In this document: one piece after another, positions 43,499 to 56,433 of the stretch
Numbering within the stretch: position 1 is the stretch's first letter
Layout of the letters: every line of letters starts with the position of its first letter
Source of the DNA: a virus
Virus record (IMG/VR): IMGVR_UViG_3300042351_000809
Direction: 5' to 3' (one strand)
DNA: 64,000 nucleotides
Notes under the pieces: generated by a model
Database searches by the model: none
Seen by the model: the letters and a program-made list of their open reading frames with translations, nothing else
What the model was told of the DNA's origin: nothing
Program-made: the position numbers and the translations under genes

Positions 43499-43840
43499 AT
43501 GAAGAATAAATTAAATGTTACAGTTGTAAACCCTAAGACTTGCAGAAAGAAGATTTGCTGTGAGGGTTGCGAACTGTCATATAGTAAACAAGATTATTTA
43601 TTATTCTTCACTGTGCGTAAACTTGTTTATTTTAATATGCTTGCAGAAGACGGTAAACAAATAAAGATTTGCGATTCGTGTTTAGTATCTCTCGCGTCCA
43701 TGACTTGTGCGAAATATGATTTACCATATATTAGTATTATAATTAAAGGAGAGGAAAATACAAAACAAATAAATATAGAATATAGTAAAGACCCCGAATT
43801 TGAGCAAGAATTAATTAAAATTTTTAAGAAGATTAAGTAA
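43499..43840 (+). CDS. Cys-rich hypothetical protein
   Basis: 113 aa with CxxC motifs. Confidence 0.55.
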   Translation: MKNKLNVTVVNPKTCRKKICCEGCELSYSKQDYLLFFTVRKLVYFNMLAEDGKQIKICDSCLVSLASMTCAKYDLPYISIIIKGEENTKQINIEYSKDPEFEQELIKIFKKIK

Positions 43841-44326
43841 TTTATCTTGTTTTTCGGGGGTCATATCTTCTGGCGGCGAATTTTGTATTATATATTCCAG
43901 CATCTTAACGGCGGAATGGTAATTATTTCTATTCTTTAGGGAGTTGCCCTCATAGGATACTATTTTAACGTTACCTTTTATGTATCCTTTATTTGGATCT
44001 ACTCTATCCAATGATGCTGATCTCCTGTGGTCGATGCCTGATTTGTATAGGATTTCGTGGCCTAAAATGGGGCAGGTATTATTTTTAATGTTTATTAAAT
44101 CCCCCAGCGTAAGGTTGAATTCCAGATTTTTCTTTTTTGAACGCTTTTTTGCTTTACTTAAGATGACTTTTTTGAGATAAACTATCTCGCCTCCATCAAC
44201 GTTTCCCATCTTTTCTTTAATTTTATTGTATTCTTGGGAGTAGCAACAAGTATTGCACTTGCCTTTTATTCTATTGAACTCTGTATCTTCTTTGTCAACC
44301 CCACAGACAGAACATTTGATTAACAT
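43811..44326 (-). CDS. HNH-type endonuclease
   Basis: CPILG...SLDRVDPNKGYIKGNV...N..K motif; N-terminal zinc finger. Confidence 0.75.
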   Translation of the reverse strand: MLIKCSVCGVDKEDTEFNRIKGKCNTCCYSQEYNKIKEKMGNVDGGEIVYLKKVILSKAKKRSKKKNLEFNLTLGDLINIKNNTCPILGHEILYKSGIDHRRSASLDRVDPNKGYIKGNVKIVSYEGNSLKNRNNYHSAVKMLEYIIQNSPPEDMTPEKQDKLLNLLKNFN

Positions 44327-44673
44327 TAGATATATCTACACAAGCTATATCTAAAAAAGGTATTTTTCAGGGGAGGCTCCGGGGATTTTTTGACCTTGCA
44401 AAGTTTTTGGGTCTGGCTTTTGGTCTTATTTTTTGAGAAATAGGGGGGTCTTATATGGAGATATATATATTATTACATAGAGATAGTAAGTATTTATTAA
44501 ATTAAGGGCAGAATAGATAGACTTCTTTAATTGGTATATTAATAAAAGAAGGTTTTATAGATTAAGGGCAGAATGATTTTCATCCCCCCTCCCCCCACTT
44601 TCAGAAAAGAGGTCGAGGATCTTTTCAAAATTAGGGGGGTCTGTCAAGGGCAATCTTTGGCAATCTTGACAAG

Positions 44674-44699
44674 AAAAAGCCCCCTCTTTCGAGGGGGTT
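44674..44699 (-). terminator. Terminator closing the leftmost early unit
   Basis: CCCCCTC-GAAA-GAGGGGG plus U-tract. Confidence 0.8.
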
Positions 44700-44719
44700 G
44701 TGCTTGACTTTCGTTTGAA

Positions 44720-45160
44720 TCAGTCGGCCAGATTGGCGACGTTTTCCAACGCGAAGCAAAGGAACTGCGGTTCCCCCTTGTCGGGGCTATAGTCGCGAAT
44801 GGTGGCGAGTTCCTCGGGGGTCGCTTCGCGGCCATCCACAAGGTAACGGGTGACCCGCTTGGCGGACGTAGGAACGGCGGCCAGATACAAGGCCCCGCTT
44901 TCCTTGTGCATGACCAACCCATCCTTGACCCAAGTGAACCACGGGGCCTTGCCAGCGGGGGCCTCGCCTGTGCGGGCCTCTAAAACGTTGGAGTATGTCT
45001 CAGGCCCCGCCACGGTGACCGTGATGCGGTGGTCGCGGGTCACGCGACCCAAGAGCGGGTTCAGGGGAACGCCAGCGCGGCCCCCCTTGTTCATTTTGTG
45101 TTCGCCAGTCAAGAGGATGGTGGCGAGGCGACCGGCGCGGATGGTGGTGGTGTCAATCAT
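44720..45160 (-). CDS. Hypothetical early protein; high-GC paralogue of 46426-46863
   Basis: 146-aa ORF, colinear with the 145-aa ORF. Confidence 0.8.
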   Translation of the reverse strand: MIDTTTIRAGRLATILLTGEHKMNKGGRAGVPLNPLLGRVTRDHRITVTVAGPETYSNVLEARTGEAPAGKAPWFTWVKDGLVMHKESGALYLAAVPTSAKRVTRYLVDGREATPEELATIRDYSPDKGEPQFLCFALENVANLAD

Positions 45161-45384
45161 GATGCGTTGCTTTCTTAAAACGTCGCCGTGATTGGCGACA
45201 AGGAAAGACTCTCACGGGTCGCTTCCGTTGTCACCTAGAAAGTGAAAGAAAAGTGAAAAACCTTTCAGGGTCATGCATAGGGTCCGAAGCGCGTCAAGCC
45301 AAAAAGTGGAAAAAGATTGTCAAGGAAAAAGAGTTGCAAGAATCGGGGACTCCGTTTTCTGCAACTCTCCTTTGGAAAGAGACT

Positions 45385-45421
45385 TGGCACGGTCCCTGCT
45401 GTCCTAGCAAGAGCCGTGCCA
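45385..45421. promoter_or_regulatory. Convergent pair of sigma54 (-24/-12) motifs
   Basis: TGGCACGGTCCCTGCT (+, 45385-45400) and TGGCACGGCTCTTGCT (-, 45406-45421); both GG-N10-GC. Confidence 0.75.
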
Positions 45422-45434
45422 GTCTAGCCTTGGG

Positions 45435-45692
45435 TCACTCTGCGAAAAGATCGGCCTTGGCGCGAGAGTGAGCCATGATGGCATGAGTCTTGCTCACATC
45501 CGTGGGGATGAAGGAAAGGCGGTAGGTCATGAGGTTCAGAGCGTCCTTGATTTCCTGCAACTGCCGCTTTCGACTAGCGACCAAGGAAGTCCTGTCTTCA
45601 AGGAACACGATGTCGGTTTCCAAGGCGACCATTCCGCCAATCAAGGCGGCGCGGACTTTGGTGGCTTGCTCTGCGGTGATGATGTTTTCCAT
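45435..45692 (-). CDS. Hypothetical early protein
   Basis: ORF track 45435-45773; start moved to MENIIT, downstream of the promoter. Confidence 0.7.
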   Translation of the reverse strand: MENIITAEQATKVRAALIGGMVALETDIVFLEDRTSLVASRKRQLQEIKDALNLMTYRLSFIPTDVSKTHAIMAHSRAKADLFAE

Positions 45693-45802
45693 GTTGTGTT
45701 TTATAGTGTCGCCGTCATTGACGACGGGAAGACTTTCGCACGGATGCATTTTGATTGTCACCAACTTTCTCAAAGAATCTTTGAGTACCCAATCGAAAGC
45801 CC

Positions 45803-45987
45803 AGCACGTTTCATGCCAAGTCTAGGTTGGCATGCTCTTTGCTCCCCAGCATAGACTATGCCAAGTCCGCACTCCAGAGAGTTGCGAGAGTTGGGGTCTC
45901 CTTTTCTTGCAACTCTCGGTTTTCCGGTTGGCATGGCACTTGCTCCCCAGCACGAATCGTGCCAAGTCGGTTGGCATGGAACTTGCT
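45803..45987. promoter_or_regulatory. Six sigma54 (-24/-12) motifs flanking repeat copy 2
   Basis: TGGCAY-N6-TGCT at 45803(-), 45828(+), 45848(-), 45929(+), 45949(-) and 45972(+). Confidence 0.75.
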
Positions 45988-46159
45988 TCCCCTTATACTA
46001 CTATAAGCCATTTCTCACTAATGTTAGTGATAAATCCTTATATATATACAAAAAATCCCCTGTACTAGTACAGAGGATCTGAGGGTATTTGATATTTATC
46101 TATTTAATGTTTAATGTTAGAGAAACAACCAAATAGGAATATCGCAATCAATAGTATAA

Positions 46160-46357
46160 TCATAGCTCGTCCCTATTGTATTTGTATTGCAATTTGGATA
46201 GGGCTTCTGTTATGTGTTGCTTCTTTTCGCTCCAAATAGAATGATCTGTTTTAATACTCTGACATGATTGTATTAGTTTATCGCATTCTTGTATAGCTTG
46301 CTCTAGTGCTATCTGCAAATGAACCATTTCAATATGAGTAAGAGAAGTGTCAGACAT
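46160..46357 (-). CDS. Hypothetical protein
   Basis: 65-aa ORF. Confidence 0.6.
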   Translation of the reverse strand: MSDTSLTHIEMVHLQIALEQAIQECDKLIQSCQSIKTDHSIWSEKKQHITEALSKLQYKYNRDEL

Positions 46358-46425
46358 AGTGTTTATATATAAGGGTTTTAGTATTAAATGCGCGTTTATA
46401 GTATTCGCGCCCCACTGTTTATCAA

Positions 46426-46863
46426 TTAGCCTTCTACGTTTACGACATTTTCAATTGCAATAGTGAGAAACTCGGCTGGCTCACTAGCTGGCTTGTACTT
46501 ATACAAGGTTTCTAGTTCTTCTTCTGTCATAGGGCGACCGTCTAATAAATATTCAATCTTACCAACATTGCTAGTAGGAATACCAGCGATATACAATTGG
46601 TTGGTCTGTTTATGAACAACCAGACCGTCTTTAATAAAACGAAACCAAGGCTCTTTACCAGCTATCTCATTACCCTTACGAGTTTGGATATTAGTATAAG
46701 TTTCCTCACCGGCAATTGTAATAGTAAAACGGTGATTCCTAGTAACACGCCCAAGGAAGGGATTAATAGCAATACCCTTGCGCCCACCTTTATTCATAGA
46801 CAGCTCGCCCTGTAGTAGTATAGTGGCGATCTGACCGGCTTTGATAGTAGCAGTGTTAATCAT
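46426..46863 (-). CDS. Hypothetical early protein; low-GC paralogue of 44720-45160
   Basis: Shared ATILL.GE..MNKGGR, LGRVTR.HR, PWF...KDGLV.HK and Y..DGR..T.EEL motifs. Confidence 0.8.
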   Translation of the reverse strand: MINTATIKAGQIATILLQGELSMNKGGRKGIAINPFLGRVTRNHRFTITIAGEETYTNIQTRKGNEIAGKEPWFRFIKDGLVVHKQTNQLYIAGIPTSNVGKIEYLLDGRPMTEEELETLYKYKPASEPAEFLTIAIENVVNVEG

Positions 46864-47165
46864 GTTGTTTATAAATAAGTGTTGCTGTTTATATAATTAC
46901 CGAACCGACGTTGATACCTTAGCACAGCCACGAATCCAGTAAACACTTTTCTTTAAGTATTTTTCATACCTAAACCGAGAGTTGCACGTTTTGGGGTCTC
47001 CGAAATCCGCAACTCTTTTTTGTTGACAACTTGTACATATATAAGAGAAGTCACTATTTGTTATTTGATCATTTATTATTTAATATTTGCTGATTTAATA
47101 TTTAATGTTTGGATAAAAAAATCCCCGCTGTATTGCTACAACGGGGTTTTGTATTTATTACTATT

Positions 47166-47369
47166 TCACCAATCCGAATCTTGTCCAGTGGGGTCTTCGT
47201 CCCACTCGCGTTGCCACTCAGAATGACAGGGCTGGCAAACCGCGCTCCGTGCCTTCGGGGGCATCAGAACGCTGCAACGGGCGCAATGGAAGCGCTCTGC
47301 GCCGTTTTCATCGATGACAGGGCAACCGCCAGCTTCGTGCCCACAACAAGGGAAGTCTTCGCAAGCCAT
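47166..47369 (-). CDS. Small Cys-rich zinc-binding protein
   Basis: CEDFPCCGH, CARC and CQPC motifs. Confidence 0.7.
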   Translation of the reverse strand: MACEDFPCCGHEAGGCPVIDENGAERFHCARCSVLMPPKARSAVCQPCHSEWQREWDEDPTGQDSDW

Positions 47370-47385
47370 AGTGTGATATAGTGAT

Positions 47386-47589
47386 TTAGTTTTTTAGTCC
47401 GAGAGAGTGACAAACAGAAGCTAGTCTGCAATTGATTCTATCAAGCTCCAAAGCAATATCACTAGCAGAATGATAATTAGCATTTGTGATGTTATTGGCG
47501 CAATTGTTAATTTGTTCAATGAGAGACTGCACCTCATGCGCGAGCGCGAGGGTGGCGGTGGCAGGGGCGGGGCAGGAAGAGGAACTCAT
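47386..47589 (-). CDS. Hypothetical early protein (near-leaderless)
   Basis: ATG 9 nt after TTGTAT-16-TACCCT. Confidence 0.6.
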   Translation of the reverse strand: MSSSSCPAPATATLALAHEVQSLIEQINNCANNITNANYHSASDIALELDRINCRLASVCHSLGLKN

Positions 47590-47760
47590 GGTGCCCAAAG
47601 GGTAGCACGGACTCATTATGATACAATTTTTTTGTGAGATTTTTTTAGGTAATCATTTCCGAGAGTTGCAAGAGTCGGGCACCCCGAAACCCGCAACTCT
47701 TTTTGTATATAAAAAAACCCCACTGTTTATCACAGCGGGGCTATTGTATTTGTTTAGCGT

Positions 47761-48177
47761 TTATTCATAATGTGGGCGAGGCTCCGCGCTATTGTCACAC
47801 TCGCCCCGCACCTGCTCAATCGTGACCCATAGCTCGCCCCCGTCGCTCCACCCCGTGGGGATGTACCCCTCATCGTGGTACGCCGTGTCGCATTCCTCGC
47901 CCGGAAGCGCGGCCATCGCACGATACCGCGCAGGGGCTTCCTCGCGGTTTTCACGCTCTACCTCCACCTTGGCGTTTTCAAGCCAAGCCTCGGCGGCTTC
48001 CATCGCGGGAAAGTAGATGGACCCTTCCAAGGTGTTGCGGGTGTACCACCAGCCACCCTCCTCCGGTCCACCGTAGTTCTGGCTGCGGCGGTACACGCTG
48101 ACCCACGCGCCTTGCGGCACGTTGAATTCGGCGTGGGCTTCGATTTTTTCGATCAGGGACTGCATTGTTGATTTCAT
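47761..48177 (-). CDS. Hypothetical early protein (leaderless)
   Basis: YGGPEEGGWWY motif; ATG 7 nt after TTGATT-16-TATGGT. Confidence 0.75.
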   Translation of the reverse strand: MKSTMQSLIEKIEAHAEFNVPQGAWVSVYRRSQNYGGPEEGGWWYTRNTLEGSIYFPAMEAAEAWLENAKVEVERENREEAPARYRAMAALPGEECDTAYHDEGYIPTGWSDGGELWVTIEQVRGECDNSAEPRPHYE

Positions 48178-48336
48178 CGTCCCTACCATAACAGGCGCAC
48201 AAGTGAAATCAAGAGAAAATCGCACAAAGAGAGTTGCGAGATTTAGGCTCCCCGAATTCTGCAACTGTTTTTGTATAAAAAAACCCCCGCTATAGTAGTA
48301 TAACGGGGGCTTATCTGTTATTTATTTAAATAGTAT

Positions 48337-48555
48337 TTAAAAGATTTCGTTGCAAACTGAATTGTTTTGTTCTGTTCTAATATTAGCAATAGTGTGAAAG
48401 ATATCCAAAGCTTCTTCCCAAGTATTTAAATCAGAAACAAAATGAATCCAATCTTCTTTACTATAACATTCAACATAGACTTGATAACCATATCCTTTAT
48501 TATAATTATCTTCCGCCAGTTGCTTCAGTTGCTCAATCCATTTTGATTTATCCAT
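48337..48555 (-). CDS. Hypothetical early protein (leaderless)
   Basis: ATG 8 nt after TTGACT-16-TATCTT. Confidence 0.7.
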   Translation of the reverse strand: MDKSKWIEQLKQLAEDNYNKGYGYQVYVECYSKEDWIHFVSDLNTWEEALDIFHTIANIRTEQNNSVCNEIF

Positions 48556-48794
48556 AGGGCACCAAGATAGCAAAAAGAATGAAAAAGTCAATAGATTTGA
48601 GAGTTGCAAGAGTTAGGCTCCCCGAATTCTGCAACTCTTTTGGGCTTGACTTTTTTTTCTTCATTTGGTGAGCGATTTGTGTTGACTCTGAGGGCGAAGC
48701 CGCCCTTTGGTCTATTTGGGGGAGGTCTGGCAATATTTGCGATTATTTGAAATAATTTTTTGACAACCTCGACCAATCTGATACCGTAGGCACG

Positions 48795-49091
48795 ATGAAA
48801 CCAGAAATTAGCGCAAGCATCCAACGCAAGTTCACCTTTGAGATCCAACTTGAAGATCGGTACGACGTTTCCGAGATCGAAGTCCTTGTGGGCTTTGAGT
48901 GGGATTACGAGTGCAACCCTGACGAGATCCGAGGCACAGACTTCCTCGTCATCTCCGAAGTCATTTGGGATTGCGAAGGCTTCACTTGGGCAGAGGAGAA
49001 GGAGATCCAAGCCGCGATCTTCTCCCGCTACGAAGAGTGGACCCGTGAGACCGAAGAAGCCGAAAGAGAGGGTCGCTTGAACGTGGATTGA
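48795..49091 (+). CDS. Acidic hypothetical early protein (leaderless)
   Basis: ATG 7 nt after TTGACA-16-TACCGT; very D/E-rich. Confidence 0.75.
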   Translation: MKPEISASIQRKFTFEIQLEDRYDVSEIEVLVGFEWDYECNPDEIRGTDFLVISEVIWDCEGFTWAEEKEIQAAIFSRYEEWTRETEEAEREGRLNVD

Positions 49092-49107
49092 AAAGTCAAG
49101 AAGAAAA

Positions 49108-49135
49108 TCACCCCGCTACGGCGGGGCTTTTTTTT
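49108..49135 (+). terminator. Terminator; identical 23-bp copy at 49512-49534
   Basis: TCACCCCGCTACGGCGGGGCTTT precedes both repeat 7 and repeat 8. Confidence 0.8.
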
Positions 49136-49230
49136 GAGAGTTGCAACTTTTGGGCACCCCGAATCCAGCAACTCTTTTTTGAGAAAAATTGTTTACAAGA
49201 GTCACGGCCCGTGCGAGACTCTTCTCCGTA

Positions 49231-49506
49231 ATGAAAACACAACACGACAGCATCGATACCGCCAGCGACCTCCGCGACCTCATCGCGCAGACCCCCGAAG
49301 AGTTTGAGCCTTCTCGTCAAGACTCTGAGCCTTTGGTTGTGGTTGACGCGAAATCCTTCCGCGAAATGCGCGTGGCTCTGAAAATGTACTTGTTCGAAAT
49401 AAAGTACTTGACACACTACCGCCCAGAGTACCGGGAGCAAGTCGCCAAAGAGGCTCAAGACCTCTTGGACAGAACGGAATACGATAAAGTCAAGAGAATT
49501 TACTGA
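49231..49506 (+). CDS. Hypothetical early protein
   Basis: Start moved to MKTQHD, downstream of the promoter. Confidence 0.7.
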   Translation: MKTQHDSIDTASDLRDLIAQTPEEFEPSRQDSEPLVVVDAKSFREMRVALKMYLFEIKYLTHYRPEYREQVAKEAQDLLDRTEYDKVKRIY

Positions 49507-49590
49507 AAAATTCACCCCGCTACGGCGGGGCTTTACAGTTGCGCGTTTCGGGCACCCCGAAGCTCGCAACTCTTTTTTTTCTTTTTTCTT

Positions 49591-49619
49591 TTGACGAGTG
49601 GGCTGGTCTGGGCTAAGGT
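49591..49619 (+). promoter_or_regulatory. Sigma70-type early promoter (representative of the cassette promoters)
   Basis: T-tract, TTGACG-17-TAAGGT, ATG 6 nt later at 49626. Confidence 0.75.
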
Positions 49620-49625
49620 TTGGGC

Positions 49626-49826
49626 ATGCAAAAAACGATTGAGTTTTACAACCGCGAAGTCTACGGCAATGTGCGCGAGTACATCGCAAATGAAAATGAC
49701 GCAAACATTGTTTACCGCTTGACGGGAAAGAAAACGATCACTAGTGTGGAGCGCGAGTTGATTCGTGACCTCTCCGGTGGTCTGATTCACTTCAAACAAA
49801 TTTTGCCCCCTTCGAAGTCGAAGTGA
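49626..49826 (+). CDS. Hypothetical early protein (leaderless)
   Basis: MQKTIEFY; REVYGN...Y and LTGKKT motifs. Confidence 0.7.
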   Translation: MQKTIEFYNREVYGNVREYIANENDANIVYRLTGKKTITSVERELIRDLSGGLIHFKQILPPSKSK

Positions 49827-49847
49827 GGGCGGGTTAAGGCAAGCGGC

Positions 49848-49951
49848 ATGGTACGCAGGGAGATCCTGCGGCGGGTTAGTTGAACCTTTAGAAACACTGC
49901 TTTTTCGGTTAGATTCGTGTCAAATGGTACGCAGGGAGATCCTGCGGCGGG
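49848..49951 (+). repeat. Two 28-bp direct repeats with an internal dyad
   Basis: ATGGTACGCAGGGAGATCCTGCGGCGGG at 49848 and 49924. Confidence 0.9.
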
Positions 49952-50105
49952 GTTTTTTGCAAAGAGTTTGTTGTGATTCTCTTTGAAGGTTTTAGCCCCC
50001 ATGAAACAGACACGAATCTTTCCGAGACTTGCAGCAATCCGCCACCCCAAATCCTGCAACTCTTTTCCTTTGACGGTTTTCCTAAATCTGATAATGTTTC
50101 CCCGT

Positions 50106-50498
50106 ATGAAAAACAAATCACTTGTGTTTGCCCTTATTTGCTCATTCTCTTTGACAACCTACGGGAAAGTCACTGAAGAACTATTTTTCAAAGCCCTTGG
50201 CAAAGTCGAGGCTTCTGGTAATCCAAACGCCGTCAACAAAAGAGAACAAGCTTTGGGTATTTATCAAATTCGATTTGCTTATTTCAAAGATTCTGGCGTA
50301 AAAGCCAACCATAAAGACGTATTTGACCCCAACGTGGCAAAAATGGTTTGCAAGGCTTATTTCGCCCGATACGAGAAAAAGGCTCTTGACAATGGAGACT
50401 GGGAAGTGTTAGCTAGATTGCACAACGCCGGTCCCAACTGGCGCAAGAATAAATCATCTACTGATAAATACTGGAATAACATTAAAAAGAACCTGTAA
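50106..50498 (+). CDS. Lysozyme-like / lytic transglycosylase with N-terminal signal
   Basis: VEASG (catalytic Glu), GIYQI and ARLHNAGP motifs; hydrophobic N-terminus. Confidence 0.75.
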   Translation: MKNKSLVFALICSFSLTTYGKVTEELFFKALGKVEASGNPNAVNKREQALGIYQIRFAYFKDSGVKANHKDVFDPNVAKMVCKAYFARYEKKALDNGDWEVLARLHNAGPNWRKNKSSTDKYWNNIKKNL

Positions 50499-50502
50499 TA
50501 AT

Positions 50503-50604
50503 ATGAGCAACAAGACTTTTGATAGAATTATAAATGCTGTAATTGTATCACTCACTATTGCTACTGTTGTTAGTGTTACTGTGGTTTACAACATCATCTT
50601 TTAA
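50503..50604 (+). CDS. 33-aa single-TM peptide
   Basis: MSNKTFDRIINAVIVSLTIATVVSVTVVYNIIF, read by eye; fills the operon gap. Confidence 0.5.
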   Translation: MSNKTFDRIINAVIVSLTIATVVSVTVVYNIIF

Positions 50605-50608
50605 TAAA

Positions 50609-50890
50609 ATGGAACTCACTTTTCTTTCTGACCCCGGCCACGGTTGGCTTCGTGTTCCTCATAAATTACTTGAAGACTGGAATATTGATATCTTAATATC
50701 AGAGTATAGTTATAGAACAAGAGACTTTGCTTACTTAGAGGAAGACTGTGATGCTTCTATCTTCATTGACGAAGCCAAGAAAAGGAATTACAAATACTCT
50801 GTTCATTACAAATTGATTAAAGACTTCGATTACTATCTCAAAAACGTTGGTAATTACTATAGATTTAACAATAACCTAAGAACAGCATGA
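50609..50890 (+). CDS. Conserved hypothetical phage protein
   Basis: DPGHGWL...YLEEDCDA motif. Confidence 0.7.
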   Translation: MELTFLSDPGHGWLRVPHKLLEDWNIDILISEYSYRTRDFAYLEEDCDASIFIDEAKKRNYKYSVHYKLIKDFDYYLKNVGNYYRFNNNLRTA

Positions 50891-51075
50891 GTGGCGAACT
50901 AAAGATAACAATACAAGAAGTTGTAGACCTTCGTGTGGCATTAAATAATGCAGAACGCCGTATCAAAGAGTTAATGGCATTAAAGCATGAAGACTGGCAT
51001 AAATTGTATCATTTAGATATTGATTCAATAGAAAAAGGAAAAGACGCTCTTAAATCTATTATACAAAGAGATTAA
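50887..51075 (+). CDS. Hypothetical protein
   Basis: 62 aa; ATGA overlap with the previous gene. Confidence 0.6.
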   Translation: MSGELKITIQEVVDLRVALNNAERRIKELMALKHEDWHKLYHLDIDSIEKGKDALKSIIQRD

Positions 51076-51186
51076 ATCACACCCGCTTCGGCGGGTTTTT
51101 CTTTGAGACTTGCAGACTCTGGGCACCCCGAATGCTGCAACTCTTTTTGTTTGAAACTCGCGCCGCTTGTGATTACCTTGTCCCCG

Positions 51187-51492
51187 ATGAAACTGCTGAC
51201 GAAACAACTCGCCGAAAAACTCAACAAGGCCGGTTCTGACGGCATGGTCCCTATTTGCAAGCTTTTCACTCCGTGGAGTGACGCTACTTGGTTGATCACT
51301 GGGATCGAAGGTGGCATCCTTTACGGGTTCGCTGACTTGGGCATGGGTTGCGTTGAATGGGGCAGTATCGCTTCCGTGGAAGAATTGGAAGCAATCAAGG
51401 GACCGCTTGGAATGACCATTGAGCGCGATTTGTACTGGCAACCCAAGGAAGGCGTGAACTACTTTGAGCTTGAAACCCTCGCGGCTATTTAA
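51187..51492 (+). CDS. DUF2958-like protein (leaderless)
   Basis: KLFTPWSDATWL...GFADLG...EWG...EL...IERDLYW; ATG 7 nt after TTGAAA-17-TACCTT. Confidence 0.75.
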   Translation: MKLLTKQLAEKLNKAGSDGMVPICKLFTPWSDATWLITGIEGGILYGFADLGMGCVEWGSIASVEELEAIKGPLGMTIERDLYWQPKEGVNYFELETLAAI

Positions 51493-51494
51493 TT

Positions 51495-51677
51495 ATGAGA
51501 GAATCTGTTTATGCTGCCGAATGTTGGGCTACTGATAAATCAAAAGAAGAAATCCAATCAGAAATCAATTACTTACAAAACCTTTGGAAGATTAAACACC
51601 CAAACCCTTTTCCTAAAAACGCACACTATAGTTATATCAGGATTGTAACGCTAAAAGAAATCCTTAAGAATAAATAA
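51495..51677 (+). CDS. Hypothetical protein
   Basis: 60-aa ORF in operon. Confidence 0.55.
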   Translation: MRESVYAAECWATDKSKEEIQSEINYLQNLWKIKHPNPFPKNAHYSYIRIVTLKEILKNK

Positions 51678-51678
51678 T

Positions 51679-51948
51679 ATGACTCTCAAAAACTTAATTG
51701 ATCATGGTTTGTTAAATAATACAAGCATGATTTGTATTGCTGATTGTGAAATAGTTCCGAGTTTTCAAATTGAAGATGATTTTCTAAAATTGCACAGAAA
51801 GAATGAGCGAGTTTTGCTTTTTCCATTAAATAATGAAGTAATCTTTGATGGACTGTTTCTCACTGTGGAAGATGAATTGGAAACAGAATACGATTTGTCT
51901 TTCCTCACTTGTACTACTATAGATCCTGAATCGTTTAAGAATAAATAA
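51679..51948 (+). CDS. Hypothetical protein
   Basis: 89-aa ORF in operon. Confidence 0.6.
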   Translation: MTLKNLIDHGLLNNTSMICIADCEIVPSFQIEDDFLKLHRKNERVLLFPLNNEVIFDGLFLTVEDELETEYDLSFLTCTTIDPESFKNK

Positions 51949-51950
51949 AT

Positions 51951-52124
51951 ATGAAATACAAAGTCGCGCTATACCAAGAGATTTATACTTATTTAGAAAT
52001 TGAAGCTAAATCAGAAGATGAAGCAAGAGATTTAGTCTTAAGCGGAGAATTTGATGATGCTAACACTATTGATAACGAAGTAAAAGAGTCTGAAATCATT
52101 GGTTGTGAAGAAATTAAAGAATAA
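51951..52124 (+). CDS. Small acidic protein (DpnD/PcfM-like motif)
   Basis: 57 aa read by eye: MKYKV...LEIEAKSEDEA. Confidence 0.55.
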   Translation: MKYKVALYQEIYTYLEIEAKSEDEARDLVLSGEFDDANTIDNEVKESEIIGCEEIKE

Positions 52125-52125
52125 T

Positions 52126-52320
52126 ATGAAATCCCTCACACTTCAACAGATACAAGCTAACTTAAAAGAATGGATGGGTGATAGTATAAAGCCCGATACC
52201 AGAAGCGGAAAACTTGCAGAGCGTACTTACATAAAGGCTCTTTTAGATACAGGCGCAAAAGTTCCACCGATTTGCATTATACTACTACAGAGTGGGCGTA
52301 GTATTGTAAACTTTAAATAA
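52126..52320 (+). CDS. Hypothetical protein
   Basis: Start moved to MKSLTL. Confidence 0.55.
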   Translation: MKSLTLQQIQANLKEWMGDSIKPDTRSGKLAERTYIKALLDTGAKVPPICIILLQSGRSIVNFK

Positions 52321-52431
52321 ATAACACGCCCCACTTCGGTGGGGTCTTAGAGTTGCAGACTTTGGGCACCCCGAATGACGCAACTCTTTTTTTTTGACTC
52401 TTTTTCCCACTCAGTGCTACTGTGTCCGCGT

Positions 52432-53304
52432 ATGAATAACACAGTTAAAAACGCTATCCGCCACCTCGTTTGCAAAGCCTACGACGCTTTTGCACAAAAC
52501 AAAACAGACATTGCCGTCACTTCTCTCCCCGGCTCTTCGTGGGAGTTTGAGAAATATGTGATAAATCACAAAGCTTATGGTGATACATTCGGGAATGTAT
52601 ATTCTCTTCAAATGTCACTCTTTGAATGTAACTCACAAGAATATCAAAGCAATCTTCGCCCCATTGCTACTATCTTTCCCCATAATAAGACAAGTGCCTA
52701 CATACTTAACCACTCTGGCGTTACATACAAAAACGAATACATAAACGCCAATAGCGTTAAATCTCTCAAATCAAAGAACATTTTCGCATGGTTTGACTTC
52801 TGTGGTAACCCTACAGAACATAACCTTGATTTGATTAAAACAGCCAAAGACAAAACTGTTACTTTCATTTTTACTTTCAATACTCACTGGCGGTGTGATA
52901 GTAACATTAGCCCGATTGTTATCAATACGGCTAACGAATATAACAAAGGATACGCTATTCAATGTTATCTGTTGACTCTGGCAATAGAGCTTGGTTTGTC
53001 ACTAGTCTGGTCGTTTGAATATGTGTCAAATCAAAATCCCATGATGACTATCTGTGTCAGTAATGACATGAATGTTATCACAAATCGCTCTTTGCAGGTT
53101 AAAGACTTCATCACTCACGAAAAGAAAGACAATAAGGCTGGTGTTAATAAGACTAAATTGGTTCTCAATAAACGCGAATTGAGCGCCGTCTATGCGGATT
53201 TGAAAGAGCGCGTTAGTGATAAAGAGATCTGTGAGAAGCATAGTATTAGTACAGGCACACTTGCCGCTTGTAAAGCTTGGATGACTATGTGGAAAGCTTG
53301 GTAA
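52432..53304 (+). CDS. Hypothetical protein with possible methyltransferase-like fold and C-terminal HTH (leaderless)
   Basis: SLPG, FE, AWFDFCG motifs; ATG 8 nt after TTGACT-18-TACTGT. Confidence 0.5.
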   Translation: MNNTVKNAIRHLVCKAYDAFAQNKTDIAVTSLPGSSWEFEKYVINHKAYGDTFGNVYSLQMSLFECNSQEYQSNLRPIATIFPHNKTSAYILNHSGVTYKNEYINANSVKSLKSKNIFAWFDFCGNPTEHNLDLIKTAKDKTVTFIFTFNTHWRCDSNISPIVINTANEYNKGYAIQCYLLTLAIELGLSLVWSFEYVSNQNPMMTICVSNDMNVITNRSLQVKDFITHEKKDNKAGVNKTKLVLNKRELSAVYADLKERVSDKEICEKHSISTGTLAACKAWMTMWKAW

Positions 53305-53449
53305 TACAATAACGACTGGGGGGCTTCGGCCCCCCTTTAGAGTTGCGAGAGTTGGGCACCCGGAATCCTGCAACTCTCTGGTTGTTTATAAACAAAAACC
53401 CCCTAGTGTTAAACACTAGAGGGTGCTTTATTTGATATTTGATCTGTTA

Positions 53450-53644
53450 TTATTTAATGTTTTCGGTTTTATTATTAGTAAACCTATAGACTTTAAAACG
53501 AATATTATTAAGGTCTTTTCTAATCTTCGTCAATTCAGCACGAATCTTTTCGCGTCTGTTTAGCAATAACCTTACAGACTTTTTCATCTCCTTTAGGTTA
53601 TTGAGTTTAGTTTGCAACTTAGCTATTTGCTTATCTTGTGTCAT
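53450..53644 (-). CDS. Basic coiled-coil hypothetical protein
   Basis: 64-aa ORF. Confidence 0.55.
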   Translation of the reverse strand: MTQDKQIAKLQTKLNNLKEMKKSVRLLLNRREKIRAELTKIRKDLNNIRFKVYRFTNNKTENIK

Positions 53645-53703
53645 TTTTGTTTCCTTCTATTATTATTGTTAATAGCAATACTACCAATAGTAGTATAAGC
53701 ATT

Positions 53704-54336
53704 TTAATGTAATTTATAACTAACGTTTGTCACTGATTTATCCCAACAGGCGCGGCAATTGAGACATTTATTATCTTGATTGGAGGCAGGACAATTGAAT
53801 GTTTTATCTTTTGACACACCAGAAGTCGTTAATCCTAATATCTTAGCAATGCCACTAGGCGCATTGCCATTTATCATTAGGGAAGAAAGACGAATAGTGA
53901 GATTGGAAGGAATATCACCAAATTGTTTCTTGTATTGAGTAACAAATGAATATTCCCTAGTCGGCAACCAGAATTTAATATGGGGAAGATTGATAGCGAT
54001 CTGACAAATCTTTGTCAAATGTTCTACAGATTGAATATCACCACTATCATGCCAACGAAAGAATCCACTCTTTTCTTTTGTAGCAATAGCAATAGTCATT
54101 GCTTCAACCCATTCGGGTTTATTAATAGAGTCAAATCGCTTTTGTAAAGCGTTTCTGACATTGGGCATATTATAGAAACCCTTTAATGCATAACACTTAG
54201 AGCAAACGCTATTCTTAATAGACACTAGCTTTCCGCCCGTTTTGCAGTACTTTGCCGGGATCGAATAGGAAAGACACGGCATTTTTGAGGGCGCAGAGAG
54301 TCCACCAACGAGGTCAAGGGCAAGGTCAAGATTCAT
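53704..54336 (-). CDS. GP88-family (radical-SAM-like) phage protein (leaderless)
   Basis: C..G......C..CYA, FRWHDSGD, FWLPTRE and C..CRACW motifs; ATG 7 nt after TTGACA-17-TAACCT. Confidence 0.75.
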   Translation of the reverse strand: MNLDLALDLVGGLSAPSKMPCLSYSIPAKYCKTGGKLVSIKNSVCSKCYALKGFYNMPNVRNALQKRFDSINKPEWVEAMTIAIATKEKSGFFRWHDSGDIQSVEHLTKICQIAINLPHIKFWLPTREYSFVTQYKKQFGDIPSNLTIRLSSLMINGNAPSGIAKILGLTTSGVSKDKTFNCPASNQDNKCLNCRACWDKSVTNVSYKLH

Positions 54337-54534
54337 CGTGGAAAGGTTAGCGCAAAGGGCAAACGGTGTCAACAGATTCGGTGCGATTTTCTTTGAGAGT
54401 TGCGCGATTCGGGGTCTCCATTTTCTGCAACTCTCTATGAGTATGTAGTTATATAACAATAAACCCCGATCTATCAAATCGGGGCTTATTTCGCTTATTT
54501 GTCTTTAATCTTGTTATTATTTAGAAACAAGCAC

Positions 54535-54732
54535 TTAAAGTATTTTATAATTAAAACTATTAACACACCAACCAGTTCTATCACTAATCATGTCAGCTAA
54601 TTCATCATCCAAAGCCCCTTCCATTATTATTAAAGAATTATCAATTTCAAACTCAAAAGAAGTTGGCAAGTTCTCTACCTTACCATCTTCTTCATCAATG
54701 TCATAAGATATATCAAATACAGAGACTATCAT
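54535..54732 (-). CDS. Small acidic hypothetical protein
   Basis: ISD.TGWCV.SF.Y motif. Confidence 0.65.
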   Translation of the reverse strand: MIVSVFDISYDIDEEDGKVENLPTSFEFEIDNSLIIMEGALDDELADMISDRTGWCVNSFNYKIL

Positions 54733-54841
54733 ATTAATATATTCTTATTTACTTAATTCTGATAAATAGATAGCCAAAGTAATTAAAACAACAGCAGGAA
54801 TCAGATAAGTCAAAAACCTTTTGTACATATTTAATTGCATA

Positions 54842-55105
54842 TTAGTGAAAGAAGATTCGTGATTCGTCTTTGAAAGTTTTCTCTTTGCCAGCTTCGTCCC
54901 ATTCGATACCGTATGTCAAACCTTCTTCGACATGATGTTTATGTAAATAATTGAAACCTTTGTATTGCTTTGCTTCCATCAGCAGGTCCGTCACGAAGAA
55001 CTGGAGAGTTCTGCGCTGGATGATCGCTTCGTTTTTGCTGGTGCAAAAGAAGTGATTGGCTTTCAGTTTGACTGATTCAAGGCTAACCGTTTTACGTTTT
55101 GTCAT
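54842..55105 (-). CDS. Hypothetical early protein (leaderless)
   Basis: ATG 7 nt after TTGATT-16-TACTAT; YKGFNYL motif. Confidence 0.7.
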   Translation of the reverse strand: MTKRKTVSLESVKLKANHFFCTSKNEAIIQRRTLQFFVTDLLMEAKQYKGFNYLHKHHVEEGLTYGIEWDEAGKEKTFKDESRIFFH

Positions 55106-55250
55106 CGGGGAAATAGTAATTCATGCCCAGAGGAAATCAAAGGAAAAAGAGTTGCGAGAAGTGGGCACCCCGGATGGCGCAAGTCTTTGGAGACGCAAAA
55201 AGGGGCACCCCGTAGGATGCCCCGCGCTGGCCGTATTTGGCGATCTGGCG

Positions 55251-56111
55251 TTAGTTGCTGGCGAGCTTCTTGAACTCAGCCTCAATCAGGCTGGCCTTGT
55301 TCAGGGTGACCAAGGTGCCCCGGTTGATGCGTTGCGCCAGTTCGTAGGAGGTAGGCTCGACCTGATGGGAGGTGAACTGCGTCACGGCGTTGTACAGGCT
55401 CCAGAGGCTGCGGTTCTTGTCCTCGCGGTGCGTCGGATCATTCCAGATGATCTTGATTTTATCCACGTTGCGGTCAGCGATCACCTTGGCCTTGGTGAGC
55501 TTGTCGAGGATAATGTGGCCCTGCTCCTGCTTTATAGAGCGTTCAGCCAAGCGGCTGAAAACGGTGGTGCTTTCCTTGAAGCCCTCGACCGCGCCAGCCA
55601 CAACGTCCACAAGGCGGGAAACGTCGAGCTTGTCGGAGTGCTTCTGGGTGAGGCTGAACTCATCCTGAAGCGTCTTCAGGCCGTTGGTGCAAACGAGGCG
55701 AAGGATGCCCATCTCGAAAGAGACGCGACAGGTGCGGTCGAAGGAGTTGTTCAGGATCAGGCGCAAACCAAGGTCATCCCCAACCTTGGGGAGCTTCACC
55801 AGTTGGTTCTTGAAGTCATACTGGACGTACACCCGCGCACCGTCGCGCATGGAGTACTCCTTGCGGGTGAACTCGCCCAACTTGTTGTCCGCGAAAGCGG
55901 TTTCGACAGTATCCATCAGGGAGCGGTTCTGAACGAGAGTGTAGCGTTCAGTGCAAACCCCAAGCACCTGCTTGCTGTCGGTGCGGCGATTGGCGAGCCA
56001 ACCAGAGGCTTCGCCATCAGGGGTGAGGAGCGGGACAGTCTCGACCGTGTAGTCGAGCAAGCTATCGGCGCGAGTGGTGGCAGTGGCGGGGGTGACGTTG
56101 ATTTCGGTCAT
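55251..56111 (-). CDS. DUF932/DUF945-family protein
   Basis: LG....Y..VQN, NSFD, RLVCTNG, H and W.LYNAVT motifs; high GC. Confidence 0.8.
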   Translation of the reverse strand: MTEINVTPATATTRADSLLDYTVETVPLLTPDGEASGWLANRRTDSKQVLGVCTERYTLVQNRSLMDTVETAFADNKLGEFTRKEYSMRDGARVYVQYDFKNQLVKLPKVGDDLGLRLILNNSFDRTCRVSFEMGILRLVCTNGLKTLQDEFSLTQKHSDKLDVSRLVDVVAGAVEGFKESTTVFSRLAERSIKQEQGHIILDKLTKAKVIADRNVDKIKIIWNDPTHREDKNRSLWSLYNAVTQFTSHQVEPTSYELAQRINRGTLVTLNKASLIEAEFKKLASN

Positions 56112-56433
56112 AAGTGCAGTGTTGATGTTAAGTGTTAACTGACGGACCAGAGGTTAGACGGCAATCAAATCAGGCGCAACTCCTTTTTCGCTTTTTCTTC
56201 AGATTTTTTTCGACTGAGAGTTGCTGGCGGCGGGGTGCCCTTTTTCTGCAACTCTTAATAATAAATAATTCTTGACAAATCTATTCTCTTTCTATCTATC
56301 TCTCCCCCTATTAAAACACACCAATCTCTTATTTCGCTTATTTGCTGGTATTATTTCTAATATTTAAGAATAAAATTAACAATATTAGGTAATAAAAAAG
56401 CCCCCTTTATTTAGGAGGCTGGTGTTTATTATT

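Follow-up and report, generated by a model that had tools for sequence, protein, structure and literature searches.

A clustered array of sigma-54-type sites around a conserved dyad in uncultured freshwater phages: a possible two-way control region

Why would a phage pack sequences resembling sigma-54 (RpoN) promoters, several of them facing one another, into one short intergenic and coding stretch? The question is raised by positions 45385-45987 of a 64,000-nt window, the whole stretch of DNA analysed here, which makes up most of a 79,412-base IMG/VR viral record (CheckV completeness 45%) from a group of uncultured freshwater phages. An earlier note on this DNA had listed eight 16-mers with −24/−12 spacing and had proposed that, being unlikely to work as productive promoters, they form a decoy for the host sigma-54 polymerase. 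A pattern search on both strands found nine exact TGGCAY-N6-TGCT sites within 45385-45987 (Table 1). All eight coordinates and strands given before were correct; the count was short by one, the plus-strand site at 45479-45494. In 100 dinucleotide-preserving shuffles 0.28 sites were expected (sd 0.49, largest 2), the rest of the window and of the 79,412-base record held no further match, and a reversed control pattern had no match anywhere in the record. 

The arrangement of the sites was also as the note had described it. Three pairs converge (45385/45406, 45828/45848 and 45929/45949), their TGCT ends lying 5, 4 and 4 bp apart, and six sites flank a 39-nt dyad at 45878-45916 in the near-symmetric order −,+,− and +,−,+. 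The location at the edge of a cassette region of small, early-type genes was likewise borne out. Sites within the array are packed 20-26 bp centre to centre, so holoenzymes cannot occupy neighbouring sites simultaneously. Sites 4 and 2 face gene 2 and gene 1, respectively, and sites 5, 8 and 9 face no gene. With the dyad centre at 45897, the predicted starts of the four outward-facing sites (4, 6, 7 and 9) fall 105, 60, 58 and 101 nt away. Site 3 keeps its boxes and changes its spacer in the relatives L011, L021 and L023, at a place where constraint on the protein and on the site are inseparable. L024-type relatives have the 16-mer of site 4 ahead of gene 1. At 45971-45999 on the plus strand, site 9 also forms a sigma-70-like promoter (TTGGCA, 17 nt, TATACT; 10/12 matches), which is kept in L011 and L023 and weaker in L021, with no plus-strand gene after it. 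The idea that every TTGGCA serves as a sigma-70 −35 box was rejected, since a suitably spaced −10 hexamer accompanies site 9 alone.

Table 1. Features of the array and its surroundings in window coordinates; mismatches are to TGGCACG-N4-TTGCT
Feature	Coordinates	Strand	Mismatches (of 12)	Remarks
Site 1	45385-45400	+	1	Faces site 2; identical in L011, L021 and L023
Site 2	45406-45421	−	0	Points at gene 1; predicted start ~45395, ~234 nt ahead of the gene 1 ATG at 45160
Site 3	45479-45494	+	1	Unpaired; antisense within the gene 2 coding region
Site 4	45803-45818	−	2	Outer leftward-facing site; predicted start ~45792, 100 nt ahead of the gene 2 ATG
Site 5	45828-45843	+	1	Inward-facing partner; perfect TTGCT −12 box
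Site 6	45848-45863	−	3	Inner leftward-facing site; predicted start ~45837, 145 nt ahead of gene 2
Site 7	45929-45944	+	1	Inner rightward-facing site; predicted start ~45955, 58 nt from dyad centre
Site 8	45949-45964	−	1	Inward-facing partner; identical in L011 and L021
Site 9	45972-45987	+	1	Outer rightward-facing site, without facing partner; predicted start ~45998
Central dyad	45878-45916			39 nt: 8-nt arms and a 23-nt inner part with GGGG..CC core
Second dyad copy	45330-45368			39 nt; between the site 1/2 pair and gene 1
Inverted repeat	45992-46007			16 nt; directly after site 9
Terminator-like hairpin	46053-46080	−		Ends the unit of the AT-rich paralogue, just before the array
Gene 1	44720-45160	−		146 aa, 63% GC, GC3 0.79; 56 homologues
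Gene 2	45435-45692	−		85-aa conserved protein; 14 homologues
AT-rich gene 1 paralogue	46426-46863	−		41% GC; on the array's other side

In all nine sites, exactly 10 bp separate the GG doublet of the TGGCA box from the GC doublet of the TGC box. The fit to the sigma-54 −24/−12 elements proposed in the note proved better than the pattern first used would indicate, with 0-3 mismatches in 12 positions against the extended consensus. From 720 validated promoters, a compilation published in 2025 derived TGGCAC-N5-7-TTGCT as the consensus (PMC12316311). Flank statistics were drawn from 72 unique GGCA-N7-TGC matches gathered from seven loci. Outside the pattern itself, positions −27/−26 are T-rich, −21 is a pyrimidine, −20 a purine and −11 a T, with −19 to −15 nearly free. 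These flanks agree with the sigma-54 consensus apart from position −15, where this clade shows no preference for T (31 of 72). Every TGGCA-N7-TGC match listed from the arrays has its boxes exactly 7 bp apart. The 16-mer is strictly asymmetric: the array sites listed have GGCA in the −24 box and, after the −12 box, T, occasionally A, and never the C required for symmetry. Facing partners are separated by 3, 4, 5 or 8 bp, and back-to-back partners by 5 or 7 bp between TTGGCA hexamers (7 or 9 between TGGCA pentamers).

The boxes are conserved where the DNA between them is not. In an alignment with L011, L021 and L023 that was built by homology rather than by pattern, one of 73 TGGCA/TGCT columns was variable, against 17 of 56 columns in the 7-nt spacers (Fisher P = 1.7e-6); the same alignment had 33 of 111 variable columns in other intergenic DNA and 103 of 242 in gene 2 coding sequence. 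Conservation in related phages, a further check named in the note, was found throughout the near clade. Of the IMG/VR relatives with a gene 1 of 52-97% identity, all 24 have one or more sites next to that gene and 21 have at least five; in 17 of the 24 the array lies 100-360 nt upstream of it. Three loci with gene 1 at 28-31% identity have none or one. Eleven divergent relatives share one architecture, in which site pairs, a central dyad with a GGGG..CCCC core and more site pairs follow one another, with boxes fixed and spacers drifting. Because the boxes are conserved while the spacers drift, and because the array is kept beside gene 1, this comparative evidence shows that the sites are real, strongly selected elements.

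What, then, is the unit under selection? Facing pairs can base-pair through their outer 6-8 bp and inner 4-5 bp, alternative hairpins are possible between neighbouring units, and an AT-rich stretch follows the array at 45990-46150. These features would suit RNA or single-stranded DNA hairpins acting as terminators, processing sites, attenuator-like structures, or origin or packaging signals. If pairing mattered, however, the spacers of facing partners should be complementary, and they match at 2.83 of 7 positions compared with 2.74 for random site pairs (P = 0.39, 18 pairs); some pairs have only 1-2 of 7 pairable positions, leaving 7x7 internal loops. It is the sequence that is conserved, not the pairing, single and tandem co-oriented sites occur as well, and no Rfam family matched. 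The hairpin or terminator reading was rejected on the spacer complementarity test, and we consider it very improbable. An iteron-type replication origin would have repeated initiator sites beside an AT-rich unwinding region and an initiator gene; here there are repeats and an adjoining AT-rich stretch, no initiator gene was recognised, and in the relatives sites are also spread over several intergenic regions.

The note had held open a dimeric factor that would recognise the paired 36-37 bp palindromes, a view that the geometry does not favour. A rigid dimer spanning two units was rejected on the varying gaps between units, and a homodimer operator on the asymmetry of the site together with the variable inter-site gaps. 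Since the hairpin, rigid-dimer and homodimer readings fail, the unit is a single asymmetric 16-17-mer whose two boxes are one helical turn from each other and whose spacer is unconstrained. Sigma-54 reads DNA in this manner. Overall, we consider a sigma-54 reading of the motif somewhat more likely than not.

The dyads and the base composition mark the surroundings of the array. The 39-nt dyad has 15 copies, all within 45330-56255, and varies in 4 of 78 columns among close relatives (both copies pooled); in divergent relatives the centre of the array is occupied by a dyad of similar build whose arms differ. The copies sit at cassette borders, most of them followed by a T-run and a TTGAC box, and the copy nearest gene 1 has a T-run and TTGACA after it on the minus strand. 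The array lies in a GC-rich island at 44600-45990 (48-63% GC, in a genome of 30-37% GC), the first of the GC-rich islands in a sequence that is AT-rich at 32-39% GC, which lie between 44.6 and 56.2 kb. An assembly chimera was rejected as the source of this island because three contigs from other assemblies share both island and flanks. Searches of 45385-45987 gave no Rfam family and no tRNA. A conserved block of ~70 nt is common to the leaders of gene 1 and gene 2 (45161-45245 and 45693-45775); it contains a hairpin and a GTGACAA box, and this box recurs in gene 1 leaders of divergent relatives.

On the minus strand, the order runs from the AT-rich 145-aa gene (46863-46426) through a 65-aa gene, the hairpin, the six-site array and gene 2 to the site 2/1 pair, the second dyad copy and gene 1. 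Beyond gene 1 lie genes for an HNH endonuclease, PhoH, a 230-aa sigma-70-family protein, an ERCC4 nuclease and the large terminase. The HNH/endonuclease VII-like gene that adjoins gene 1 (43811-44326, minus strand) has weaker PHROG matches to the T4 Srd anti-sigma and 'decoy of host sigma70' families. Gene 1 and the AT-rich gene are paralogues (55% identity, E 2e-60). Both were present in 15 of 17 loci, always as one GC-rich (54-63%) and one AT-rich (36-42%) copy, and in most loci the two, mostly divergent, flank the site array; a GC-rich copy is kept long-term in an AT-rich phage. Gene 1 and gene 2 are real, conserved genes, but neither matched a Pfam, PHROG or NCBIfam family or a PDB sequence. 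The AF2 model of gene 1 (pLDDT 84.7) has a small beta-rich fold, for which Foldseek returned no match at E 0.001 or better and VIA-align gave Z ~5 to Tudor, Sm, BAH and KOW-type small barrels, a score below the meaningful level.

Throughout the gene 1 clade the array is placed between the two paralogues or next to them, which would suit a reader of another kind. The 16-mers may be operator- or iteron-like sites of a protein other than sigma-54 that binds cooperatively along the array and switches the flanking units, such as a heterodimer of gene 1 and its AT-rich paralogue, gene 2, an early phage protein or a host factor, with the likeness to sigma-54 being coincidental. Sites of 16-17 bp with gaps of 3-8 bp resemble familiar phage arrays such as lambda OR/OL. 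At one locus (L061:7330-7530) five sites point the same way at distances of 26-46 bp, four of them at a 26-28 bp spacing that is too close for holoenzymes, and two decayed sites accompany them. These sites lie upstream of an ORF that by eye resembles a distant gene 1 relative and has two more sites inside it. The asymmetry, with no C after the −12 box in the array sites listed, nevertheless excludes a homodimer. That gene 1, its paralogue and gene 2 match no DNA-binding family, and that the gene 1 model has a small beta-rich fold, also speaks somewhat against this reading. Such a reader would also have to coincide with the sigma-54 consensus at ~11 positions.

The distribution of the motif bears on the same alternative. 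The exact face-to-face pair, in which 4 nt separate the two units, was found in 28 viral contigs of IMG/VR and not once in 596 Gb of prokaryote genomes, where the chance expectation is estimated at well under one; a design found in phages only would suit a non-sigma-54 operator, and we count it for the sigma-54 reading as well. Four of the 28 contigs are complete or nearly so, G005 (203 kb), G006 (161 kb), G007 (153 kb) and G008 (124 kb), and have 8-17 sites each, most or all inside 2.4-5.1 kb. In G006-G008 this cluster precedes, by a few kb, a terminase with 30-55% identity to that of the window. The stretches scanned in G005-G008, and in the likewise site-rich L070 and L080, hold no member of the gene 1 family, which argues against a reader tied to gene 1, and any other operator protein would need to have kept its specificity fixed while the terminase fell to 30% identity. 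The stability of the motif across this range fits a slowly evolving reader such as a host sigma factor. A conserved phage protein of the sigma-70 family, encoded near the array region in G006, G007 and the window phage, could also explain this stability; a 7-bp gap between boxes is not sigma-70 geometry. Taking both sides together, we regard a non-sigma-54 operator as unlikely, though a serious alternative. Neither the 45385-45987 stretch nor a G007 promoter module found similar DNA in cultured phages, and literature searches returned no phage described with sigma-54-type site arrays or a face-to-face design.

If sigma-54 holoenzyme does bind the sites, it might do so without firing. The array on replicating phage DNA would then titrate RpoN or polymerase away from the sigma-54 regulons of the host, serving as a sponge, a roadblock or a parking place, close to the decoy of the earlier note. 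Sigma-54 forms closed complexes that need no activator to be stable, the two sites of a facing pair overlap one another's start positions, several sites lead to no gene, each genome carries 9-18 sites, and no activator gene was found in the complete relatives. A sponge, however, needs no fixed orientation or position, and the sites appear to have both. Among unpaired sites at all loci, 16 of 75 had a co-directional sigma-70-like promoter within 130 nt downstream, compared with 3 in the flipped control, a contrast that is overstated because orthologous sites were counted separately and are not independent. Paired sites had no orientation bias (20 vs 26), as expected for pairs. A plain test of the distance to the nearest ORF start had given the opposite sign (9 vs 26) and was set aside because several of its cases lay between divergent genes or on weak ORF calls; the replacement used sigma-70-like promoters as reference, independently of gene calls. 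We take the same-way pointing of single sites and downstream promoters in the relatives as indicative only.

Position points in the same direction as orientation. Early-type genes of G006 and G007 have a fixed order of gene-facing site, 18-nt inverted repeat, near-consensus TTGACx-17-TATAAT promoter, purine-rich stretch and ATG, and the single sites checked there lie 36-37 nt from the −35 box of the sigma-70 promoter. That distance is like that of an activator site, which would also suit a non-sigma-54 operator. In the window, the 16-nt inverted repeat after site 9 is placed like the inverted repeat after these gene-facing sites. The claim that the sites are unlikely to be productive promoters and hence a decoy is not supported in that form: in relatives, single sites run with promoters, in G006 and G007 they keep a fixed module order, and the window's four outward sites start 58-105 nt from a conserved dyad, an enhancer-like geometry. 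The precise layout around that dyad and the modest number of sites per genome weigh against a sponge as well, and we judge binding without firing improbable.

Related modules were observed in other relatives. Early-gene modules in L087 (G007:143500-149500) and L086 (G006:7000-13000) carry a fixed GTCGATATAA between the sigma-70 promoter and the purine-rich stretch, and multi-hairpin units with a GTAAGTCC-type motif stand ahead of each module. In L080 (3400-5640) and L070, a module of ~200 bp, composed of a facing pair, a long GGGGCCCC-capped hairpin and a back-to-back pair, recurs at several cassette borders in place of the bare 39-nt dyads of the window.

Firing from sigma-54 sites would call for an activator and a host that has the factor. 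Searches that covered this record, four related fragments and three complete relatives found no PF00158 activator gene and no sigma-54 gene. One weak PF00158 hit cleared the threshold only through the sum with neighbouring hits, its best stretch (E 0.007) being confined to positions 19-59 of the 168-position model; it was rejected as an activator and read as a generic AAA+ match because the same model matches in all 14 control genomes. A host search with the gene 1 family had no match in 185,579 species genomes, and the terminase, at ~24% identity to those of Bacillus and Microcystis phages, does not point to a host. A Shine-Dalgarno-like GGAG, GAGG or AGGA lies within 20 nt of the start in 8 of 38 genes (long ORFs, whole window). 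So few such motifs would suit a Bacteroidota-type host, whereas the TTGACA boxes beside the dyads would not. Early-type genes have a motif resembling TATAAA(C/T)A(A/C) a few nucleotides before the ATG, which may indicate short-leader or leaderless messages.

The explanation that we prefer, held tentatively and at a little under even confidence, is that the 16-mers are sites of the host sigma-54 holoenzyme in a two-way, activator-dependent control region arranged around the central dyad. The nine sites would be sigma-54 (RpoN)-type elements with −24 GG and −12 GC, read by the host enzyme within a single control region that separates the cassettes of two paralogues and has the conserved 39-nt dyad at its centre. 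Four sites would face outward, with predicted starts ~60 and ~100 nt from the dyad on each side, each paired with an inward-facing partner except the outermost rightward one. Leftward firing would transcribe gene 2, gene 1 and the block behind them with PhoH, the phage sigma factor and the terminase; rightward firing, with no gene ahead of either start, would run antisense into the unit of the AT-rich paralogue. The dyad could be a regulator or enhancer site, an insulating hairpin or both, and the closed complexes would be opened by a host activator or by a phage activator of a kind not yet recognised. The tight packing of the sites, the lack of a gene ahead of site 9 and of the inward-facing sites, the weak T at −15, the negative activator searches and the sigma-70-family protein encoded near the array count against this explanation. 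In this scheme sigma-54 as the reader, the transcription starts and the source of the activator are all inferred.

A bolder form of the sigma-54 explanation is that these phages seize host sigma-54 without a classical AAA+ activator. The pairs would park polymerase for a new phage factor, which would release it in either direction, or would withdraw RpoN from host stress regulons; the small-barrel family of gene 1 would be a candidate for such a factor. We offer this as a long shot.

To our knowledge, phages take over transcription almost only by way of sigma-70 or of polymerases or sigma factors that they make themselves. The array points to a use, or a trapping, of the host's RNA polymerase that we found described in no paper on phages. 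Should host sigma-54 read the sites, a large and widespread group of freshwater phages would tie its early/late switch partly to an enhancer-dependent host pathway, or disable that pathway, by means of a paired design that bacteria themselves do not use. Should sigma-54 not be the reader, the sites would belong to another asymmetric DNA reader whose specificity is fixed across very distant phages.

Like the lambda OR/OL operators, the array has three closely spaced sites of 16-17 bp to either side of a control region that separates two genes. The lambda operators, however, are near-symmetric and bind a homodimer encoded adjacently, whereas the sites described here are asymmetric and adjoin no helix-turn-helix gene. 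The PeSL cassettes of T4-type phages (PMC2839356) are promoter-plus-hairpin modules at the borders of small, variable early genes, much like the window's 39-nt dyads at 45330-56255 and the site, inverted repeat and promoter modules of G006 and G007. PeSLs use sigma-70 early promoters only, with no −24/−12-type box and no palindromic site arrays.

On the bacterial side, widespread non-promoter and intragenic sigma-54 binding sites are reported in E. coli (PMC4591121), where they bind holoenzyme without an obvious transcription unit, as a decoy reading would need. Those sites are reported to be single and scattered over the chromosome, whereas the phage sites form a conserved, ordered array. Bacterial sigma-54 promoters such as glnAp2, pspA and nifH, and divergent pairs with a central activator site, have the same 10-bp spacing of GG and GC, an extended consensus that the phage sites fit, the same asymmetry and the same free spacer. 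The phage sites differ from them in standing as face-to-face or back-to-back pairs packed at 20-25 bp, in lacking a detected activator gene, in being targetless in several cases, in a paired design that is absent from the 596 Gb of prokaryote genomes and in their setting in a lytic-type phage. The likeness to divergent sigma-54 promoters lies in the window's outward sites, which stand 58-105 nt from a central dyad.
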